IMG/VR virus record: IMGVR_UViG_2778260996_000006
Length of the DNA stretch: 26,721 bases
Direction: 5' to 3' (one strand)
Source of the DNA: a virus
Lineage: Duplodnaviria; Heunggongvirae; Uroviricota; Caudoviricetes
Below, piece after piece: positions 1 to 26,721 of the stretch; the stretch's first letter is position 1, and each line of letters starts with the position of its first letter. The position numbers were made by a program, and so were the translations under genes. The notes beneath the pieces are model-generated. The model worked only from the letters and a program-made list of their open reading frames with translations. It was not told the origin of the DNA and did no database searches.

Positions 1-24
1 AGCGTCCACCATATTTGGTGTCCA

Positions 25-219
25 CTATTCTCTCAGGAATTTCAGGATCTGCCAGACGGTGCTGAGACGACGCTTACGCACAACCGCCGTCACCGCGTCA
101 GGATCGAATGACTGAACGATGCCAGGCAAAGCGACGCGGATCTGGTTCTTTGTGGTTTCCCGCTCGGATTTGAATGTTTCGGCAAGGTCGCCGCTACGAG
201 TCTGGTCTGATATGGCCAT
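25..219 (-). CDS. small hypothetical protein (64 aa) at the left edge, probably the next gene of the late/tail operon
   Basis: ATG at 219 with AGGAG 8 nt upstream; ORF-track start at 252 rejected because it lies inside the terminator hairpin; no recognisable motif. Confidence 0.4.
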   Translation of the reverse strand: MAISDQTRSGDLAETFKSERETTKNQIRVALPGIVQSFDPDAVTAVVRKRRLSTVWQILKFLRE

Positions 220-230
220 TTGATAAACTC

Positions 231-260
231 CTGAAAACAAAAAACCCGCCAAGTGGCGGG
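231..260 (-). terminator. intrinsic terminator closing the cargo cassette
   Basis: Minus-strand CCCGCC-ACTT-GGCGGG hairpin (plus 245-260) followed by UUUUUGUUUU (rc of 231-244). Confidence 0.6.
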
Positions 261-281
261 TCTACAGGAACAACTCTAAGT

Positions 282-3763: not shown

Positions 3764-5751
3764 TAACCCACCCTCACCTGATTACTTCGCATGACCTGAG
3801 CATTTGCAGACTGTTGCCGACGTGCAACCTCATTACCGACAGCGTGCGGATCTCCACCACCGTAAATGTGGTAGGTATTTTGCTGGTTAACCTCTGTCAC
3901 TTTGCCACTAATTCCCGCCACGGCAGCCTTATTAATCAGCTCCCGAGAATAGATATTTCTTCCATTCTCATGCTGGATAATGCTGCTCATCAATGCTGAC
4001 ATGGTTTGCGGATCGCTCATATTCAGGGCAGCCCGGGGATCCACTCCCAGTCGTTGCGATACAGCCCTGATATACGCAGTTGTGTTGTTATTATCAGACG
4101 CAGGTGCCCAGGTAGAGATAATTTTCTCCACACTGTTTATTCCCCGTCCGGCGTACAGCATTAACTGACGAGCAAGAGCCCGTAATCCATCAAAAGCAGT
4201 TTCAAATCTGGCAAATCGCCCGCCCGGGCGTTCAAGAGAAGCCCCTGCCTGACCAGCAAAATTAAGGTTTCCCGGATTGTTATTCCGTTCTCCTCGTTTC
4301 GTAGCCTGTGCATGTTGTTCCGGCTCATCATCACCAAACCAGCCGCGTACCGTCCGGCCCACACTGCGGGGATCGAATCCCCAGTGCTCTTTAATCCAGT
4401 CGGCAGTACTGTTAGCGCTGTCTGTAACCATCGGCATCGCTGACGGATTTTCGCTGCCCTGATTAAGTATCTGTTTGCCGATGCTGACGGCATCAGCCCA
4501 GCGGCCATCTTTGATAGCGTTGAGCAGGTCGGCGATCATGTTCAGCATTTTGCTGAATTCGCCCATCTGGTCGATGAAGTTGCTGAAATCCCACTTCAGG
4601 GACCATGATTTGGGGTCAATATTGAGCAGTTTCGCCAGCGCTTTCACCAGGTCGTTAACGGTCGTTTTAAGGTCACGAACCATCTTCAGCGCGGCATCGA
4701 CCTCCGGTTTCCACTTGCCCCAGTCAATCAGGCTGTCGCCGCCTTCCTTCCAGGTCTGATAGTCCTCCCACAGGAGGGCAATACCCGCCGCCAGCGCGGT
4801 AATGAGGCCAATCGGCGACATCCAGAACGTACTGTTCAGAATGCGCAGCGCAATCGTCAGTGCGCCAAACAGCGAGATCAACTCCCGCGTTTGCTTATCC
4901 AGCGATTGCCACCAGGTGATAAGGCCTGATGTCCCCTCAATCAGTCTGAAGAACAGCCGCCCGATAATATCCCCGAGCGCCAGAATGCCTTTTATGGCTT
5001 TCGTCAGGGTCTGCTCGATACGAGGGAAGTTGTCCAGGATATGGCGGCGCAGGGTGTCCAGCGAACCCGCAAGCCCCCCCGCAAGATTAGAGCCGATTTT
5101 GTCACGGGCCATGCCTGCCATCGCGCCAAACTCACGCAGGGAGGTCATAAATTTGTTGGAGCTTCTGGCCGCCTCGTCAGCATTGAAGCCGATAGCTTTC
5201 GCCATTGCGCTGTACTGCCCGGAGAAGCCACCCACACCCCGGCGCATCGCCATAAGGGTATTTTCGTCAATGCCCAGCATCTGCGCATACTGGTTAGCCC
5301 GGTAATACGGCATGCTGCTGAGTTTCTGTCCAACGCCCGTAAAAATAGCGGCCATGTCACGCATGTTACCGCTGGCATCACGGGTCTGTACGCCCAGGCG
5401 ATTCAGAAAGCCTTCTGCACCGGGATTGTTACGAATAAACCGGGATAGGCTTTCCAGAGAAGATCGCGCAGCGTCCACGCTGCCGCCAACCTGCGAAACC
5501 GCATAGCCAATAGACTGAATTCCCTGGACTGTCGCGCCGGTGCGCTGTGACGCCCAGTAAAGATTATCCAGGCCGGAGGCGATCTTAGCCGTGAAGGCCA
5601 CCACGGACAACGCAGCTCCTTCAACAGCCAGCCCCATTTTGATGACATTTGCAGTTGTACCGGCGAGGACAGAACCGAACTTTTTCGCTCCTGCATCATC
5701 CACACTGAAGCCAAGCGAGACGAGGAAATCTTTAATAGTTTCAGCGTTCAT
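3763..5751 (-). CDS. tail tape measure protein
   Basis: Long protein with a central hydrophobic block, directly downstream of the frameshifted chaperone; start trimmed to MNAETIKDF (ATG at 5751, GAGAGAGGA RBS). Confidence 0.8.
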   Translation of the reverse strand: MNAETIKDFLVSLGFSVDDAGAKKFGSVLAGTTANVIKMGLAVEGAALSVVAFTAKIASGLDNLYWASQRTGATVQGIQSIGYAVSQVGGSVDAARSSLESLSRFIRNNPGAEGFLNRLGVQTRDASGNMRDMAAIFTGVGQKLSSMPYYRANQYAQMLGIDENTLMAMRRGVGGFSGQYSAMAKAIGFNADEAARSSNKFMTSLREFGAMAGMARDKIGSNLAGGLAGSLDTLRRHILDNFPRIEQTLTKAIKGILALGDIIGRLFFRLIEGTSGLITWWQSLDKQTRELISLFGALTIALRILNSTFWMSPIGLITALAAGIALLWEDYQTWKEGGDSLIDWGKWKPEVDAALKMVRDLKTTVNDLVKALAKLLNIDPKSWSLKWDFSNFIDQMGEFSKMLNMIADLLNAIKDGRWADAVSIGKQILNQGSENPSAMPMVTDSANSTADWIKEHWGFDPRSVGRTVRGWFGDDEPEQHAQATKRGERNNNPGNLNFAGQAGASLERPGGRFARFETAFDGLRALARQLMLYAGRGINSVEKIISTWAPASDNNNTTAYIRAVSQRLGVDPRAALNMSDPQTMSALMSSIIQHENGRNIYSRELINKAAVAGISGKVTEVNQQNTYHIYGGGDPHAVGNEVARRQQSANAQVMRSNQVRVG

Positions 5752-9453: not shown

Positions 9454-9857
9454 AGCTGGCGACCGCCTGCACCGAACATCGTGATCAACTGATAAAATTC
9501 AGCGCCATATCGGGTGTTATTCCAGAAACCTGCATCAGGATTCAGCGTCGCGCTGGTGTCATAGCTGACGCTTACCTTATCCACGGACTTTGAGGACTGA
9601 ACACCATTGGTTGAACCGCCCGGACCACCAGCCAGCATCGCTCTGCTGTCAGCCGCCCAGAGCGTCATGTAGTGAGCAACGAACAACCCGGCAAAGTACG
9701 GAAACAACTTTTTGCCGGTGACATTTTCGCTCAGCAGTTCATCGGCCAGATTCAGACGGAACCCGATTTGGGCGTCGGGATATTTTGCCGGGTCAGCAAA
9801 CTGCGGGAAGTCGCGGCGAAAATCACTTACCGCTGGCAGACTTTGATTCTTTGACAT
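9450..9857 (-). CDS. hypothetical head-tail protein, start uncertain (ATG 9857 or 9869)
   Basis: ORF track trimmed; the long N-terminal extension in the track overlaps the upstream gene. Confidence 0.35.
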
Positions 9858-10231: not shown

Positions 10232-11173
10232 TCAGATACCGTCCACATAGGACAGAGTTTCTTTATACACTGGCTCGACTGCACCCAGCTTGCCGTAGTA
10301 AGTGACGATCTGATACAGGCCGCGATACTGCACCGGCACGCTCTGAAGCGGAACCAGCGGGTAGCGGACGTATTTTTTATCGTTGGTGTACGCAACCATG
10401 CGATCCTTATTCCCCACACCACGGCCTTTCAGCCATTTAACCGCGCGGATATTCAGCGGAACACCGTTCTGGTGATAGCTGATGGTGTTGGTCTGAAGGT
10501 ACGTCAACAGGGACTGGTTACCCGCAGATGAAACGATGATGCTGGACAACAGAGCAAACTGTTCAGGCGGGATCAGCAAATCACGCGGGACCACAGAGTA
10601 ACCAGAAGCGGCCCACGCATCAGACAGCACCTGGTTAATGCTTGCGCGGATTTCGTCCGGTGTTGAGGTTGCCCACGTTTTGGCAGCGTTGTTGACAGGC
10701 ACGCCGTCCAGGGTAACAAGGCCTTTCAGGTTTAATGCGGAATCGCCAACATATACCTGTTCATCGTTATCCATCTGCCATTTCAGTTGCATCCCGTCAT
10801 ACTTCTGCGTATCAATCGGGCGGCCGACCTGCTGAGCAGCCTGCAATTCTATGACCGTCCAGCCAAGTTCCATCCCCCACAGGTTCAGCGGGTTACCGGA
10901 TTTGCCGGTATCCACGTTCACGCCAGCAATAGCGGTTGAGTCTTTGCCTACCCAGTTTTTGCCATTCGGATTTGCACCAGTACCCGCAGCGGCGAAGCTG
11001 GTATTCGTCCAGCTGGAAATGTCATCTGCGATAGAGACATCTTCACGCAACTGAATATCGCGGGTCCAGGTGTACCCCACCAGTGGCAGGTTCAGCGTCT
11101 GGTCGAGTCGCTCCAGCTCCCCGATGAGAAAGGCACCAGAGCTGTCAACGGTTGCCTGATCAAAAGTAATCAT
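10232..11173 (-). CDS. major capsid protein (313 aa)
   Basis: Position after protease/scaffold and a small structural gene; followed by a stabilising hairpin. Confidence 0.7.
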   Translation of the reverse strand: MITFDQATVDSSGAFLIGELERLDQTLNLPLVGYTWTRDIQLREDVSIADDISSWTNTSFAAAGTGANPNGKNWVGKDSTAIAGVNVDTGKSGNPLNLWGMELGWTVIELQAAQQVGRPIDTQKYDGMQLKWQMDNDEQVYVGDSALNLKGLVTLDGVPVNNAAKTWATSTPDEIRASINQVLSDAWAASGYSVVPRDLLIPPEQFALLSSIIVSSAGNQSLLTYLQTNTISYHQNGVPLNIRAVKWLKGRGVGNKDRMVAYTNDKKYVRYPLVPLQSVPVQYRGLYQIVTYYGKLGAVEPVYKETLSYVDGI

Positions 11174-11184
11174 TCGTCTGTTCC

Positions 11185-11691
11185 TTAAATCTTCCAGGAA
11201 ATTTCTGCATTGCCGTTAGCATCACCGGCACCTGTGAATTCAGCGTTGGTCAGCACCACATTTTTGCCACTGACTGACGTGGACATGAATCCACCCAGCG
11301 GCACTTTGATGGATTCATCAGTGGAGACGACAACGTATACCGGGTCGCCTTTTTTGATAGTGCTGGCATCAAAATCAGAACCGAGATTAACGGTCACGTA
11401 GCCACGCTTCATGGCGTCGCCCGGGAAGTTCTTGCCTGTTCCCACCTGGCGAACCATGTCCGGCTGCGACGTGGTCGGATAAGGGCGCACGTAGATCCCC
11501 TTCACCTTGTCTGCGGTATCACCATCTGCCAGCGGCACGAAAAAACCGTCATCATCGTATTTACCAGCCAGCCCATAGGCAGCGAAGGCGTTATCGGATT
11601 TAAGGACCACCGGTTCGACGGTTAAGTCCTGCGGGCGAGAGACAGCCCCGGCAATACCAACAGGCATCCGGTACAGAAATACATTATTCAT
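11185..11691 (-). CDS. head structural/decoration-like protein (168 aa)
   Basis: ORF track; position between scaffold/protease and capsid genes. Confidence 0.45.
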   Translation of the reverse strand: MNNVFLYRMPVGIAGAVSRPQDLTVEPVVLKSDNAFAAYGLAGKYDDDGFFVPLADGDTADKVKGIYVRPYPTTSQPDMVRQVGTGKNFPGDAMKRGYVTVNLGSDFDASTIKKGDPVYVVVSTDESIKVPLGGFMSTSVSGKNVVLTNAEFTGAGDANGNAEISWKI

Positions 11692-11694
11692 TTT

Positions 11695-12915
11695 TTACCC
11701 TTTACGGTTTGCCCAGAATTCAGCGTTTTGTTTGTTCAGGGAAGCGATACTGGTCATGCCCATGTTTAGGCGCTGTGCATCGCCGGTGGTGGCGCGGGTG
11801 TTTCGCCCTTTGGCAATCTCAGACACGGCATTAAACGCCATGTCGACCGATTGTTTCGGCAATTTGCGGATATCCGCATCACCGACTATCTGGCGAACCA
11901 GCGTTTTGTCAGCGGAAGCCAGAACCTCGCGTTTGAACGCGGTCGGTTTCATCTTACGGCTCAGATCGATACCCGGAACAATAACTTCGGCACGCCAGGC
12001 TGAGTCACCAGTAATCGTGGTTTCCTCTTCATCGTCCTCGCCGTCACCGGTCGGATTATCGTCAGGCTTATTATCGTTATCGCCCGTGGCATTTCCTTCC
12101 AGCTTAGCCAGCAGGGCTTTCAGTAATGTTTTGAGGTCATCATCACTGTCGCCGGTTGGGCCTCCCCCCATCTCTGGTGCTTTGTCCGGTAGTGGTTGCT
12201 GCGGGGACAGGTTGATATTGAGATTAACGCCCTGCGGCAAATCCCCCTCATCTCCTGTAACCGATGCGGGAGCCGACTCCACCAGTTCGTTCATGGTGTC
12301 GGCATCTCCTGTCTTGATGGCCGCACGCATGCGGTTCCACCAGTTTTTCTTTTGATTTGCCATTGTGTCTCTGTCTCCAATTGCACAACGATTTCCGGCT
12401 CTGCCTTTAGGGACAAGAGCCACATGGTTTCCGGTAATATCGACCTGCTCAGCTTTACCTGGCTCGGTCTGCTCGTACTCCGCGTCATAGCCGCACGACA
12501 CTTCGCGCAGGCCATCTTCGATAAGCTGAATGGCGTTTTCGTCTTTGACGATAAGGTCAGCCAGCATCAAATCAGACTGCTCACCCGTCCCGCGCCGGAC
12601 ATTCTGGAGGTGCCCGACAGCAAGCTCTTTCCAGTTCTCGGGATTTACCAGCCGCACATTCCCGTTTTCATCTTCAGGATGCAGAATCGTGATGCTCATC
12701 CCTTCGAATGAGGCAAGCGTGGCCGGATGGAATACCTGCTCAGGAGAACGCGTGACGACTATTTCACCGAACTTATCGGGTTTCAGTTTTGGCAGGTCAT
12801 CAGCACCATAGAGCTGCTTACCTGTTCGTCCTATCGGCACGTCTCTGCACAGCAACGAGCCGTCAGCCAGCTGATAGCGGGTTTCCCCCAGCCGGGTATT
12901 GAAAAAATATTTCAT
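11695..12915 (-). CDS. prohead protease/scaffold-like protein (406 aa; XkdF-like N-domain plus acidic low-complexity region)
   Basis: Position between head-morphogenesis and capsid genes; acidic D/E/G-rich central linker typical of scaffolds; family by recollection. Confidence 0.55.
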   Translation of the reverse strand: MKYFFNTRLGETRYQLADGSLLCRDVPIGRTGKQLYGADDLPKLKPDKFGEIVVTRSPEQVFHPATLASFEGMSITILHPEDENGNVRLVNPENWKELAVGHLQNVRRGTGEQSDLMLADLIVKDENAIQLIEDGLREVSCGYDAEYEQTEPGKAEQVDITGNHVALVPKGRAGNRCAIGDRDTMANQKKNWWNRMRAAIKTGDADTMNELVESAPASVTGDEGDLPQGVNLNINLSPQQPLPDKAPEMGGGPTGDSDDDLKTLLKALLAKLEGNATGDNDNKPDDNPTGDGEDDEEETTITGDSAWRAEVIVPGIDLSRKMKPTAFKREVLASADKTLVRQIVGDADIRKLPKQSVDMAFNAVSEIAKGRNTRATTGDAQRLNMGMTSIASLNKQNAEFWANRKG

Positions 12916-12929
12916 GTGTTACCTGCGAT

Positions 12930-13703
12930 TCAGGCGGGATAAGATTGGGAGGTGGGAAAAACGATTTCTTTATAACAGCGACAATTCGGGAGCTCGCCAG
13001 CGTGACCTGTCATGCCGTCAAGCGTTGGAGGTTTGCCCCATTCGACAAATTTACCTTCCATTTCCCGATGAGAATGCCTGACGTCACCATCTTCGGCTGT
13101 ACGCCAGATATAACTATTCGAACCAATTGACAGCGCACGCGCCTGATCCAGCGCGCCGGTTGCACGTCCAAGTTCAGTACGGGCAATCAGGTCAGCTCTG
13201 GACTTTGCTATATCACCCGATGCGGCTATTTCTTTAGCAAAATATTCTGCTCTCCCACCGGTCACAACAGCTTCTGTCGCCCGATTCTGGATGTCGTACA
13301 CCCTGTCAGCCGCCTCGAGGGGGAGCGATTTGATGTACTTGACCTGTTCGGCGATGATGGATTGCATCACCTGGCCCACAGGAGCGCTTTCCACAAGATT
13401 GCGGAGCTCGCGACTGATGTTCTTGCTGTGTTGCCGCCAAACTTTCTCGTTCTGCCGGGTTAGGTCCGCAGTAAAGTTTTCCGCGACCTTTGTCGCCCAG
13501 GGGGTGATGATTTCACTGTAGCGTTCCAGCGCCTCAATAATTTCCGTGATACTGTCATTTGAACCATCGTAGCGACCATTTACGATGTCTCCGACCGCCC
13601 GCGCTATCCTGCGTAGGCTGGTTCGATAGCGGATTTCCGCCTGACGGTTCCTGCGGTTCGTCATCAGATTCGCCGATGCCGGGCGGCGCTTCATCTTCGG
13701 CAT
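12930..13703 (-). CDS. head morphogenesis protein, Mu F / SPP1 gp7 family
   Basis: Recognisable MuF-like C-terminal motifs (RTAEDGDVRHSH, NCRCY); true start uncertain because the ORF overlaps the portal 3' end by 148 nt. Confidence 0.7.
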   Translation of the reverse strand: MPKMKRRPASANLMTNRRNRQAEIRYRTSLRRIARAVGDIVNGRYDGSNDSITEIIEALERYSEIITPWATKVAENFTADLTRQNEKVWRQHSKNISRELRNLVESAPVGQVMQSIIAEQVKYIKSLPLEAADRVYDIQNRATEAVVTGGRAEYFAKEIAASGDIAKSRADLIARTELGRATGALDQARALSIGSNSYIWRTAEDGDVRHSHREMEGKFVEWGKPPTLDGMTGHAGELPNCRCYKEIVFPTSQSYPA

Positions 13704-15021
13704 TCTCGATGTCCTCGTCGGTAATGGATGCCCCGATGCCGGTTACGTCAGAATTTTCGCGCAAATCAGTCATAGCGGCTTTCAGTGTCATCAGACCATC
13801 ACCCAGCGCCGTACTGATTGCGTTGGTAGTGTTTAACGCCACCGTTGAGCGATCGACATCAGACATTTGCCAGAGCGGGTTAAACTCAAACGTGAAATCG
13901 TCCGGCAGCGGCTTGCCAAGCTCCGAACGATGCATGATGTCCAGTATCCGCCGCACCGGAAGACGTAAACGCCTCTCCTGTAACGAGCTTACCCGGTCGT
14001 AATAGTTGGCAAGGTCTGCATCGCCGGTAGAAAATCCTTTCGGGGACTGTCCGAACAACCGCACCAGTGGGATACCAACAGCGCCACTAATCTGTTCTGC
14101 AAACTGCGAAAGGATGTCATCCAGACCACTGAAGCTGTACTGATGCGTTTCAAACTTATCCCGCGAGTCCATGAGTGTCATACCTTCATTGCTCTGGAAC
14201 TGTCGAATCAGGTCGATATTCTTCAGCAACGCTTCATACGCAGGACCACCAAGTGCGATAAGCTCGCGTAGCTTCTCCACGCTGTAGGTGCGCAGATGCG
14301 CCTTGTAGACCAGCTGCGCCGCGCCGACAGTAGCGCTGTCGAACGCGGTAAGACGATCCCAGATACGCTCTACAACCGACATTCCCCATTCGTTCTCGGT
14401 CATCTTCTGCTGAAATGGCAGCGTGACGCCATCAAAGCGAATCAGGCGACTGTGATGAATGCGCCAGGCAGGAATTCCCGTTGCTGTGGTCACCACATCG
14501 TAAAACTCAGGTTTACCCAGGTCCGGCCCCATATCTTTAATGCGGCGGGTCAGTACCGGGTCGATCATCCAGCGGTCGAGCGGGAGAATCCCCTTAAACT
14601 TGCCCTTACCGATGGTTTCGGGTCGCAGCGGGGTCATTGGTGCCTGCCCCTCAATCATGATGAAACCCACCGCGCCGCCGTAGAGGCGCGACCATTTCAG
14701 CACGTCATTCAGCGCATCCCAGATTTGCAACTCATCCAGTTGTGATTCGAGAATGCCACGATCTTTTGCATCAATTTCCGACGTGATGCGAATGCCTTTG
14801 CGGGTCATATCATCCGGGATAGCATCGACTGCTTCGCCGATGATCCAGGATGAACGATAGGACCATTCCACCAGCATGCGGTTACGACTGGTGAAATTAG
14901 CCCGGTAGGTGGATGCTGAGTGCTGGTTAGGTGTCTGCATCCCTACGCGGGCAATAAAATTCTCATAACCATCAGCTGTGGCCTGCGCAGTTCGCCGCAG
15001 GGCTTGTTTGTTTCGTGCCAT
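13555..15021 (-). CDS. portal protein (488 aa)
   Basis: Size, acidic C-terminal tail, position directly after large terminase. Confidence 0.75.
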   Translation of the reverse strand: MARNKQALRRTAQATADGYENFIARVGMQTPNQHSASTYRANFTSRNRMLVEWSYRSSWIIGEAVDAIPDDMTRKGIRITSEIDAKDRGILESQLDELQIWDALNDVLKWSRLYGGAVGFIMIEGQAPMTPLRPETIGKGKFKGILPLDRWMIDPVLTRRIKDMGPDLGKPEFYDVVTTATGIPAWRIHHSRLIRFDGVTLPFQQKMTENEWGMSVVERIWDRLTAFDSATVGAAQLVYKAHLRTYSVEKLRELIALGGPAYEALLKNIDLIRQFQSNEGMTLMDSRDKFETHQYSFSGLDDILSQFAEQISGAVGIPLVRLFGQSPKGFSTGDADLANYYDRVSSLQERRLRLPVRRILDIMHRSELGKPLPDDFTFEFNPLWQMSDVDRSTVALNTTNAISTALGDGLMTLKAAMTDLRENSDVTGIGASITDEDIENAEDEAPPGIGESDDEPQEPSGGNPLSNQPTQDSAGGRRHRKWSLRWFK

Positions 15022-18267: not shown

Positions 18268-18609
18268 TTACTCCTTAGAGCCACCAAACTTGTTACCGAT
18301 TACTCGCATTGCAGCCCCACGAATAGCATCGACACCGATCAGCCCAACACCACCACCAATGGCAACAGAAAGAGATTTAGGCCATCCAACATACTCAAGA
18401 GCGGATGCAAAGGTCAGCGTCAGAGCACCACAGAGCAAAATCTCAAGCGTTTTTCGTTTCCAGCCGCCGCCACCGCCAAAATAGGCAATGCGCAAGCCAG
18501 CCATAACAATTGACATAACCACTGCGCCCAACGGCGTATCTCCACGCCACCAACTTTGTAAGAGTTCCAGTAAGTCAGGCCAGGAATGAGGAGCATTGTG
18601 CATTTTCAT
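18268..18609 (-). CDS. S: class I holin with dual-start (MKM) motif
   Basis: Start trimmed to ATG 18609 (GGAGG upstream); MKM start as in lambda S; lambda-S-like hydrophobic core. Confidence 0.8.
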   Translation of the reverse strand: MKMHNAPHSWPDLLELLQSWWRGDTPLGAVVMSIVMAGLRIAYFGGGGGWKRKTLEILLCGALTLTFASALEYVGWPKSLSVAIGGGVGLIGVDAIRGAAMRVIGNKFGGSKE

Positions 18610-22326: not shown

Positions 22327-22539
22327 TTAAGCCTTTTTATCGTTTTGTGAGCCATACAACAGCCAATTAGGGTCGCAATCCAATGCTATAGACATTTCAA
22401 GAAGATAACGTGGCCGAGCAATAACACCACTTTCAATTCTGTTTATTGCCTGCTGGCTCACTCCTGTGAGCTCAGCCAACGTAACTTGCGTCATTTTGAG
22501 TTCTTTACGTCGTTCTTTTACTCGGGTCGCTAAGGTCAT
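22327..22539 (-). CDS. cro: Cro-like HTH repressor (70 aa)
   Basis: Start trimmed to ATG 22539 (GAGGTGA 7 nt upstream); XRE-type HTH; divergent from CI; about 60% identical to the CI N-terminal domain. Confidence 0.8.
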   Translation of the reverse strand: MTLATRVKERRKELKMTQVTLAELTGVSQQAINRIESGVIARPRYLLEMSIALDCDPNWLLYGSQNDKKA

Positions 22540-22659
22540 TGCTTTCACCTCATACAATTTTAGTGGTATTTAGCAACAACAAATGAGGTTTGTCAAATAC
22601 AACAAAAATTGTTTTTAATGTGGGTATACACATTAATACAACCCAGAAGGACTAATCCC
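22540..22659. promoter_or_regulatory. cro/cI divergent promoter-operator region (OR-like)
   Basis: Palindrome TTAATGTG-N6-CACATTAA at 22615-22636; repeated ATACAA-N6-T(T/G)GT(A/T)T sites at 22552-22569 and 22597-22614. Confidence 0.5.
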
Positions 22660-23283
22660 ATGTCTCTCGCAGCCCGTTTTAAAGCACGTCGTTTGGAATT
22701 AGGAATGACTCAAGTGGAAGTAGCGAATTCTGCAGGGGTTAGCCAACAATCCATAGAATCCATCGAAAGTGGACGAACCAGAAAGCCACGCAATCTTCTG
22801 GATCTGGCTAAGGCCTTGAAATGTAGCCCAGACTGGCTACTGAACGGTAAAAATATTATGCCTCTCGCGGAGATAAGTACCAGACGCATACCTATATTAA
22901 GTTACGTTCAGGCAGGAGAGCTTACAGAAGCAAGAGACATAACAGATCTGACAGGGGAATTTGAATATATTTTGGCAGACTCTGACATTCCAGAAACATG
23001 CTTCGCATTACGTATTGATGGCGACAGCATGCAACCAGAGTTTAAAGAAGGAGACATTGTTATCATCGATCCTGATCTATGTCCTGCACCAGGGGAGTTT
23101 GTTGTCGCCAAAAACGACGGTCACGAAGCTACATTTAAAAAATACCGTCCATTAGGAATCGGCATCGACGACTTTGAATTAATCCCCCTAAATCCTGATT
23201 ACCCTATTTTTCGTAGTGCAGATATGAACTTACAGATCATAGGTGTAATGATCGAACACCGTATTTACCGCCGTAAACGTTAG
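22660..23283 (+). CDS. cI: CI-type prophage repressor (HTH + S24 LexA-like peptidase)
   Basis: Start trimmed to ATG 22660 (AAGGA RBS); N-terminal HTH; Ala-Gly site (VQAGEL); Ser (GDSM) and Lys (ATFKKY) catalytic dyad. Confidence 0.9.
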   Translation: MSLAARFKARRLELGMTQVEVANSAGVSQQSIESIESGRTRKPRNLLDLAKALKCSPDWLLNGKNIMPLAEISTRRIPILSYVQAGELTEARDITDLTGEFEYILADSDIPETCFALRIDGDSMQPEFKEGDIVIIDPDLCPAPGEFVVAKNDGHEATFKKYRPLGIGIDDFELIPLNPDYPIFRSADMNLQIIGVMIEHRIYRRKR

Positions 23284-26284: not shown

Positions 26285-26662
26285 ATGAAACTGAAGCTGA
26301 ACAATGTTCGTCTGGCCTTCCCGTCTCTGTTTGAAGCTAAAACTGTAAACGGCGAAGGCGATCCGCGTTTCTCCGCAGTATTTTTAATGTCTCCCAAACA
26401 CCCACAACTGGAAGAAATCCGTAAAGCTATGAAGCAGGTAGCGAAGGAAAAATGGGGAGAGAAGTGGGAGCCCATTTATAACCAGCTGGAGAAAAAACTC
26501 AATCTGTGCCTGCATGATGGTGATGAAAAAGCAGAGTATGAAGGCTTCCCCGGTAATTTCTTCCTGAATGCTGCTAACAAAGCGCGCCCAGCTGTTCTTG
26601 ATCGCGATCGTTCGCCACTTATTCAGGCTGACGGACGTCCCTATGGTAAGCGTACAGCCTGA
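26285..26662 (+). CDS. DUF2815-like putative ssDNA-binding protein (125 aa, possibly C-terminally truncated)
   Basis: N-terminal VRLAFPSLFEAK resembles DUF2815 proteins as recalled; pairing with the upstream nuclease. Confidence 0.55.
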   Translation: MKLKLNNVRLAFPSLFEAKTVNGEGDPRFSAVFLMSPKHPQLEEIRKAMKQVAKEKWGEKWEPIYNQLEKKLNLCLHDGDEKAEYEGFPGNFFLNAANKARPAVLDRDRSPLIQADGRPYGKRTA

Positions 26663-26721
26663 ACCGTCTGGTCAGAATCTGACGAATTAGACAAAGTGGT
26701 GTCCACCAAATAAGTAGTGGG

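Follow-up and report, generated by a model that had tools for sequence, protein, structure and literature searches.

A prophage segment cut at both ends

The stretch of DNA analysed here (the window) is 26,721 bp long and corresponds to an entire draft contig, NJVV01000064.1 of assembly GCA_002461905.1, as established by an exact look-up of the spike–IS fusion protein encoded at its left end. Between two short terminal stubs, positions 78–26645 carry an internal segment of a SEN34-like myovirus prophage, cut at both ends, whose genes comprise those for tail, head, terminase, lysis, Q, VapE primase, immunity and DUF2800 proteins. In blastn comparisons this segment is 99.96–99.99% identical to, and collinear with, positions 18399–44525 of the prophage sequence from E. 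coli FDAARGOS_1059, the sole exception to collinearity being one 439-bp tandem duplication. When the first and last 1.5 kb of the window were compared by megablast with 5,426 complete E. coli genomes, 100%-identical prophage matches were obtained, and the top matches all begin at 78 or end at 26645. Neither junction with the stubs was present in these 5,426 genomes by the same megablast search, the top matches stopping at 78 and 26645. Seeming full-length matches to short end queries (H31 and H43) proved to be other insertion sites, at which 6–7 flanking bases coincide.

In FDAARGOS_1059 the prophage continues on both sides. To the left there is a complete tail-spike gene of 753 nt, after which come baseplate and tail-fibre genes; to the right, a complete DUF2815 gene of 549 nt precedes genes for DNA polymerase, helicase and a tyrosine integrase, the last of them adjacent to yfhL. 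The integrase of this intact relative lies outside the region that the window covers. The nearest sequenced phages, vB_EcoM-689R2 and its relatives (97.6%) and Salmonella phage SEN34 (83%), have genomes of 36–43 kb, which likewise extend past both window ends. Since homology stops at 78 and 26645 while the relatives continue on both sides, the window is the middle of a prophage with its outermost genes cut.

Three further features of the prophage were observed. The tandem duplication is exact (1963–2401 is repeated as 2402–2840, the whole region being 1963–2840) and splits a baseplate/tail gene into two ORFs (1368–2402 and 2368–2871); with one copy removed, a 354-aa ORF results. None of the complete E. 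coli matches listed has its junction: they aligned in two parts, across just one 439-bp copy. The duplication may be peculiar to this strain, or else it is an artefact of assembly. Between the divergent HTH gene (22327–22557, minus strand) and LexA/S24-type repressor gene (22609–23283, plus strand) there is, at 22554–22612, an inverted repeat of 23 nt (83% complementary, 13-nt spacer); the operator/promoter of the immunity switch is probably located here. Finally, the tail fibre assembly gene of the otherwise intact FDAARGOS_1059 prophage is truncated by an ISCro1-family IS66 element (48210–48436 of the L009 sequence); this prophage lineage has been struck repeatedly by IS66-family elements.

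The two truncated genes

The gene at the left end of the window encodes a tail spike (membrane-puncturing spike), which is 250 aa long when intact (L001 3390–4142). In the window it is truncated: the ORF at 25–219 on the minus strand consists of 47 native codons (219–78), followed by 17 IS-derived codons and a stop within the stub, where the intact protein reads on as ...TAVV|QPAIRSV. By exact-protein look-up, the spike–IS fusion protein occurs in one contig only, NJVV01000064.1 itself. From the position of the break in the intact gene, we predict that the 8 bp at 78–85, GCACAACC, are one copy of a target-site duplication, and that past the left IS the rest of the spike gene would resume as GCACAACC followed by AGCCTGCTATTCGTTCGGTT. 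Upstream of the spike gene, between it and a 56-aa ORF, there is an intrinsic-terminator-like hairpin at 242–263 (minus strand; AGACCCGCCACTTGGCGGGTTT and then a T-run), inside the tail operon.

At the right end, the interrupted gene encodes a DUF2815 (Pfam PF10991), or Enc34-type ssDNA-binding, protein. The truncated ORF (26285–26662, plus strand) has 120 native codons, up to 26645, then 5 IS-derived codons and a stop, as compared with 549 nt for the intact gene (L002 5086–5634). Here the exact-protein look-up returned the DUF2815–IS fusion protein from seven contigs, of which the 59-kb contig ADUO01000178.1 (L005) spans the junction. Its IS block, at 10362–13898, has TCCCTATG on both sides and contains IS66 tnpA, tnpB and transposase genes. 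Beyond the IS, the rest of DUF2815 resumes, and a 209-aa gene, DNA polymerase and a TIR gene come after it in the order of the intact prophage. The L005 junction is identical to that of the window, in which the 8 bp at 26638–26645, TCCCTATG, would be the left copy of the target-site duplication of the right IS. Past the right IS of the source strain, the rest of DUF2815 would be expected as TCCCTATG followed by CAGGGTGCTATGTAAACGCC. Because TCCCTATG is duplicated and the prophage resumes in L005, the right-hand event is a simple insertion, common to several strains; the left-hand event is private to NJVV01000064.1.

The element that occupies the DUF2815 site in L005 is a hybrid, made up of ISEc8 nt 1–838 (IRL, tnpA and tnpB) and, directly joined to it, a complete ISCro1-like IS66 element, the tip of which (GTAACCGG...) is at L005 11200 and the IRR of which abuts the TCCCTATG duplication. 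The hybrid lacks the ISEc8 transposase gene and the ISEc8 IRR. It might represent a unit mobilised by way of the ISEc8 IRL and the ISCro1-like IRR, or else have arisen by deletion or mis-assembly. Among the complete-genome matches listed, none contained the hybrid junction contiguously, the best of them consisting of two pieces over 436 bp. The right-hand element in the strain from which NJVV01000064.1 derives could be either plain ISEc8 or a hybrid of the L005 type.

The stubs are ends of IS66-family elements

The first point to note about the stubs is that each of them is identical to the end of a known insertion sequence. The left stub (1–77, minus strand) is the tnpA-proximal end (IRL) of an element of the ISEc22 family, within the IS66 family, and is identical at 77 of 77 positions to a 2,453-bp reference copy (L004 1125–3577) that has an 8-bp target duplication, GAACAACT. 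The right stub (26646–26721, plus strand) is the tnpA-proximal end (IRL) of ISEc8, another member of the IS66 family, with identity at 76 of 76 positions to a 2,442-bp reference copy (L003 3507–5948) with the 8-bp target duplication CTCCTATG. Matches to the left stub were found at 3,799 places in 1,780 complete E. coli genomes, with at most 14 per genome, and matches to the right stub at 9,763 places in 3,422 genomes, with at most 22 per genome. These copies are located on both chromosomes and plasmids, in multiple dispersed positions as expected for insertion sequences.

IS66 elements have inverted repeats of 20–30 bp that start with GTAAGCG and generate 8-bp direct repeats (PMC11946415), and they carry three ORFs, for TnpA, TnpB and a DDE transposase (PMC12888890). 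Both stubs begin with the GTAAGCG tip, which starts at base 77 on the minus strand on the left and at base 26646 on the plus strand on the right. Both have GTAAGCGT at the tip and a conserved ACCGTCTGG at nt 18–26. The terminal inverted-repeat core of the left IS is found at 52–77 (GTAAGCGT...ACCGTCTGG on the minus strand) and pairs with that of the right IS at 26646–26671 (GTAAGCGTACAGCCTGAACCGTCTGG). Of the right stub, no more than about the first 13–25 nt recur in the IRR of its own element. As the tips at 77 and 26646 face the interior, both IS elements lie outside the window, their bodies running to the left beyond base 1 and to the right beyond base 26721.

The IS66 gene set, tnpA (HTH), tnpB (PF05717) and the DDE transposase (PF03050), directly follows the same end sequences in L003, L004 and L005. 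In the ISEc8 copy of L003, the IRL is followed by tnpA, tnpB and an ISEc8-family DDE transposase on the same strand. In the ISEc22-family copy of L004, tnpA, tnpB and the transposase come directly after the end that matches the left stub, and would run leftwards in the orientation of the window. Projected from the reference copies, the tnpA start codons (ATG) would be situated outside the window, at a distance of 5 nt from base 1 and of 17 nt from base 26721. It had been remarked in the original prediction that no transposase is visible; this is true of the window, but only because the contig ends 5 and 17 nt before the tnpA starts.

The 8-bp targets of the insertions resemble those of the reference copies: TCCCTATG can be compared with CTCCTATG for ISEc8, and GCACAACC with GAACAACT for the ISEc22 type (window positions 77/78 and 26645/26646; L003 3499–3506; L004 3578–3585). 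The copies used for the comparison were top-ranked matches among thousands, so the likeness probably stems from how they were selected and does not point to a target preference.

Inverted similarity between the window ends

The similarity between the two ends, in inverted orientation, had been proposed from the sequence of the window, and it is real. In a global alignment, the reverse complement of 1–77 and positions 26646–26721 are identical in 53 of 82 columns, and the blocks originally picked out (GTAAGCGT, ACCGTCTGG, CAGA..CTGA, AATT and CACCAAATA) appear in their expected succession. When the reverse complement of 1–110 was aligned locally, with gaps, to the last 110 bases, the score was 34, about 9 SD above shuffled sequences. 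This was never reached in 2000 shuffles (mean 14.2, SD 2.2, maximum 28), nor among 954 further 110-nt pieces taken from both strands of the window (maximum 29), and chance similarity was rejected on these two controls. The similarity needs gaps to show, since an ungapped repeat finder reports just the terminal 26 nt (52–77 and 26646–26671, 73% identical), which taken alone are unremarkable. The limits first proposed, 1–70 and 26650–26721, are slightly too narrow; the true ones are 1–77 and 26646–26721, exactly where homology to intact prophages ends. GTCCACC is indeed present at both ends. It is situated between the tip of the IS and the start of tnpA and is quasi-palindromic (GGTG-NN-CACC), and therefore reads alike on both strands.

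The apparent divergence of the repeat is the difference between two IS66 species, the stubs being homologous left ends (IRL) in opposite orientations. The ISEc8 and ISEc22-type copies share 85% identity between nt 360 and their far end, with much greater divergence in the IRL and tnpA. Over the IRL–tnpA portion blastn gave no alignment between the two copies, and a global alignment of the first ∼480 nt has 321 identical columns out of 514. The weak end-to-end similarity of the stubs thus matches the divergence of ISEc8 and ISEc22 over the IRL and tnpA. The outer (IRR) ends of ISEc8 and ISEc22, by comparison, are identical at 68 of 77 positions.

We also considered that the two stubs might be the IRL and IRR of one IS, inserted once in a circular molecule. 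The IRL and IRR of a single element have only their first 8–25 nt in common (8–13 nt plus ACCGT), whereas the IRLs of ISEc8 and of the ISEc22 type align over the whole stub, so that the 77-nt similarity is not that between the IRL and IRR of a single insertion. This possibility was further rejected on the grounds that the two stubs match the IRLs of two different IS species and that two different genes are truncated, which in the intact prophage are 26 kb apart.

Comparison of the left ends of ISEc8, ISEc22-type and ISCro1-type elements (window 1–60 and 26662–26721; L009 48383–48465) brought out some shared blocks. All three have AACCGTCTGG at nt 17–26, as well as GTCCAYC / GGACAC blocks that surround an AT-rich spacer immediately before the tnpA ATG. 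At the right ends, CCGTATTGACGGGGATG is found instead. The shared left-end blocks may be putative end-specific binding sites or promoter/operator sites.

DISCUSSION

We regard it as almost certain that the ends of the window are explained by two IS66-family insertions in a resident SEN34-like E. coli prophage, combined with a break in the assembly at the repeats. An ISEc22-type element would have entered the tail-spike gene and an ISEc8-type element the DUF2815 ssDNA-binding gene, in opposite orientations, each with its tnpA-proximal end (IRL) towards the enclosed 26.5-kb stretch. Each element would have transposed by the usual IS66 route, generating an 8-bp duplication, and the left insertion would also be simple, with GCACAACC as its predicted duplication. 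With both the spike and the ssDNA-binding protein disrupted, the prophage is presumably defective. From identical or related copies elsewhere, we infer the full structure of the IS elements, the left duplication, and the continuity of the prophage past the IS elements in the source strain.

The position of the breaks can be accommodated in the same way. In de Bruijn-graph short-read assembly with k = 77, contig ends are expected ∼76–77 nt inside collapsed repeats, and the length of the stubs (76–77 nt) fits such an assembly. The assembler would have collapsed the multi-copy IS elements, and the contig would end after an overlap of k or k−1, that is, 77 and 76 nt into the repeats. It is because the elements are multi-copy, and short reads cannot pass through them, that the contig ends inside the IS copies. 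The end similarity is, in sum, already known biology plus an assembly boundary.

Several other explanations of the ends were weighed against the two-insertion explanation. The original prediction had suggested that, were the molecule circular, the two ends would form an imperfect palindrome (∼120 bp as first put, ∼150 bp as weighed here) between convergent operons, acting as a bidirectional terminator or a packaging/recombination site. The end similarity itself is all that speaks for this, and we give it next to no credence. The contig stops inside the repeats, and its ends are 100% identical to multi-copy IS termini; both adjoining genes are truncated relative to intact homologues; and the related 36–43 kb phage genomes run on past both ends. 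As for a terminator, there is no terminator-like site in 1–77, the only one nearby being the hairpin at 242–263, which is outside the repeat. The further suggestion that the ends are terminal repeats of a mobile element came closer, in that they are indeed transposon termini. However, they belong to two external IS66 elements and do not bound a 26.7-kb unit: the tips point inward, the repeats run outward, and the adjoining prophage genes are truncated.

A different possibility is that the IS66 copies have recombined or brought about a rearrangement, with inversion of the 26.5-kb stretch or loss of neighbouring prophage DNA, such that the window has become separated from the remainder of the prophage. 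Homologous recombination can act on inverted copies that are 85% identical, the left junction occurs in NJVV01000064.1 alone with its far side outside the window, and relatives of the prophage show other IS66-linked truncations, for example that of the tail fibre assembly gene by an ISCro1-family element. On the other hand, the right junction in L005 is clean, with an 8-bp duplication after which the prophage resumes, and inside the window perfect collinearity with the intact prophage is kept. Nothing requires an inversion at the left junction. We think such a rearrangement rather unlikely, and it would in any case add to the two-insertion explanation and not replace it. Less probable still is a 31-kb composite transposon, in which both IS copies would move as one with the piece of prophage between them. 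The layout formally resembles that of Tn5 and Tn10, with related IS copies in inverted orientation, and at their outer ends (IRR) ISEc8 and ISEc22 agree at 68 of 77 positions. Yet the prophage exists at the same chromosomal site, next to yfhL, without these IS copies; the right IS is found in other assemblies too while the left is private, which argues for two independent insertions; and the fragment was found in no other context when the window ends were searched by megablast against complete E. coli genomes. More generally, that the two IS66 elements and the 26.5-kb fragment act as a unit, either as an invertible IS–IS segment or as a composite transposon that moves phage structural genes by means of the near-identical IRR ends, seems very improbable to us.

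The contig NJVV01000064.1 is then, in terms of the two-insertion explanation, part of the interior of a prophage that two IS66-family insertions have inactivated, and not a complete element with terminal repeats of its own, and the ends of the window are not to be taken as phage or element boundaries. The importance of this is small and mostly a matter of bookkeeping. For genome scans, inverted similarity that is short and diverged, and that links the two ends of a draft contig, is a mark of an assembly broken at IS copies. Such breaks may be recognised by the tip motif of the family, here GTAAGCG, facing inward beside truncated genes.

It is instructive to compare the window with known systems. 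As in the composite transposons Tn5 and Tn10, two related, inverted IS copies flank a segment of DNA; in contrast to these, the arms here are two different IS species, and what they enclose belongs to a resident prophage that occupies its normal site, with no sign of movement. With ISEc8, the right end shares the first 76 nt of the 2,442-bp copy, which has the GTAAGCG tip and an 8-bp duplication, but these first 76 nt alone are in the window, and the one junction-spanning assembly has the hybrid of ISEc8 nt 1–838 with an ISCro1-like element. The left end similarly corresponds to the tnpA-proximal end of the 2,453-bp ISEc22-type copy that is flanked by the duplication GAACAACT, but only 77 nt are present, and the insertion in the spike gene is private to NJVV01000064.1. 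There is also a parallel with contig breaks at collapsed repeats where, with the k-mer size presumed in this case, both window ends are placed as such breaks are, 76–77 nt inside multi-copy elements.
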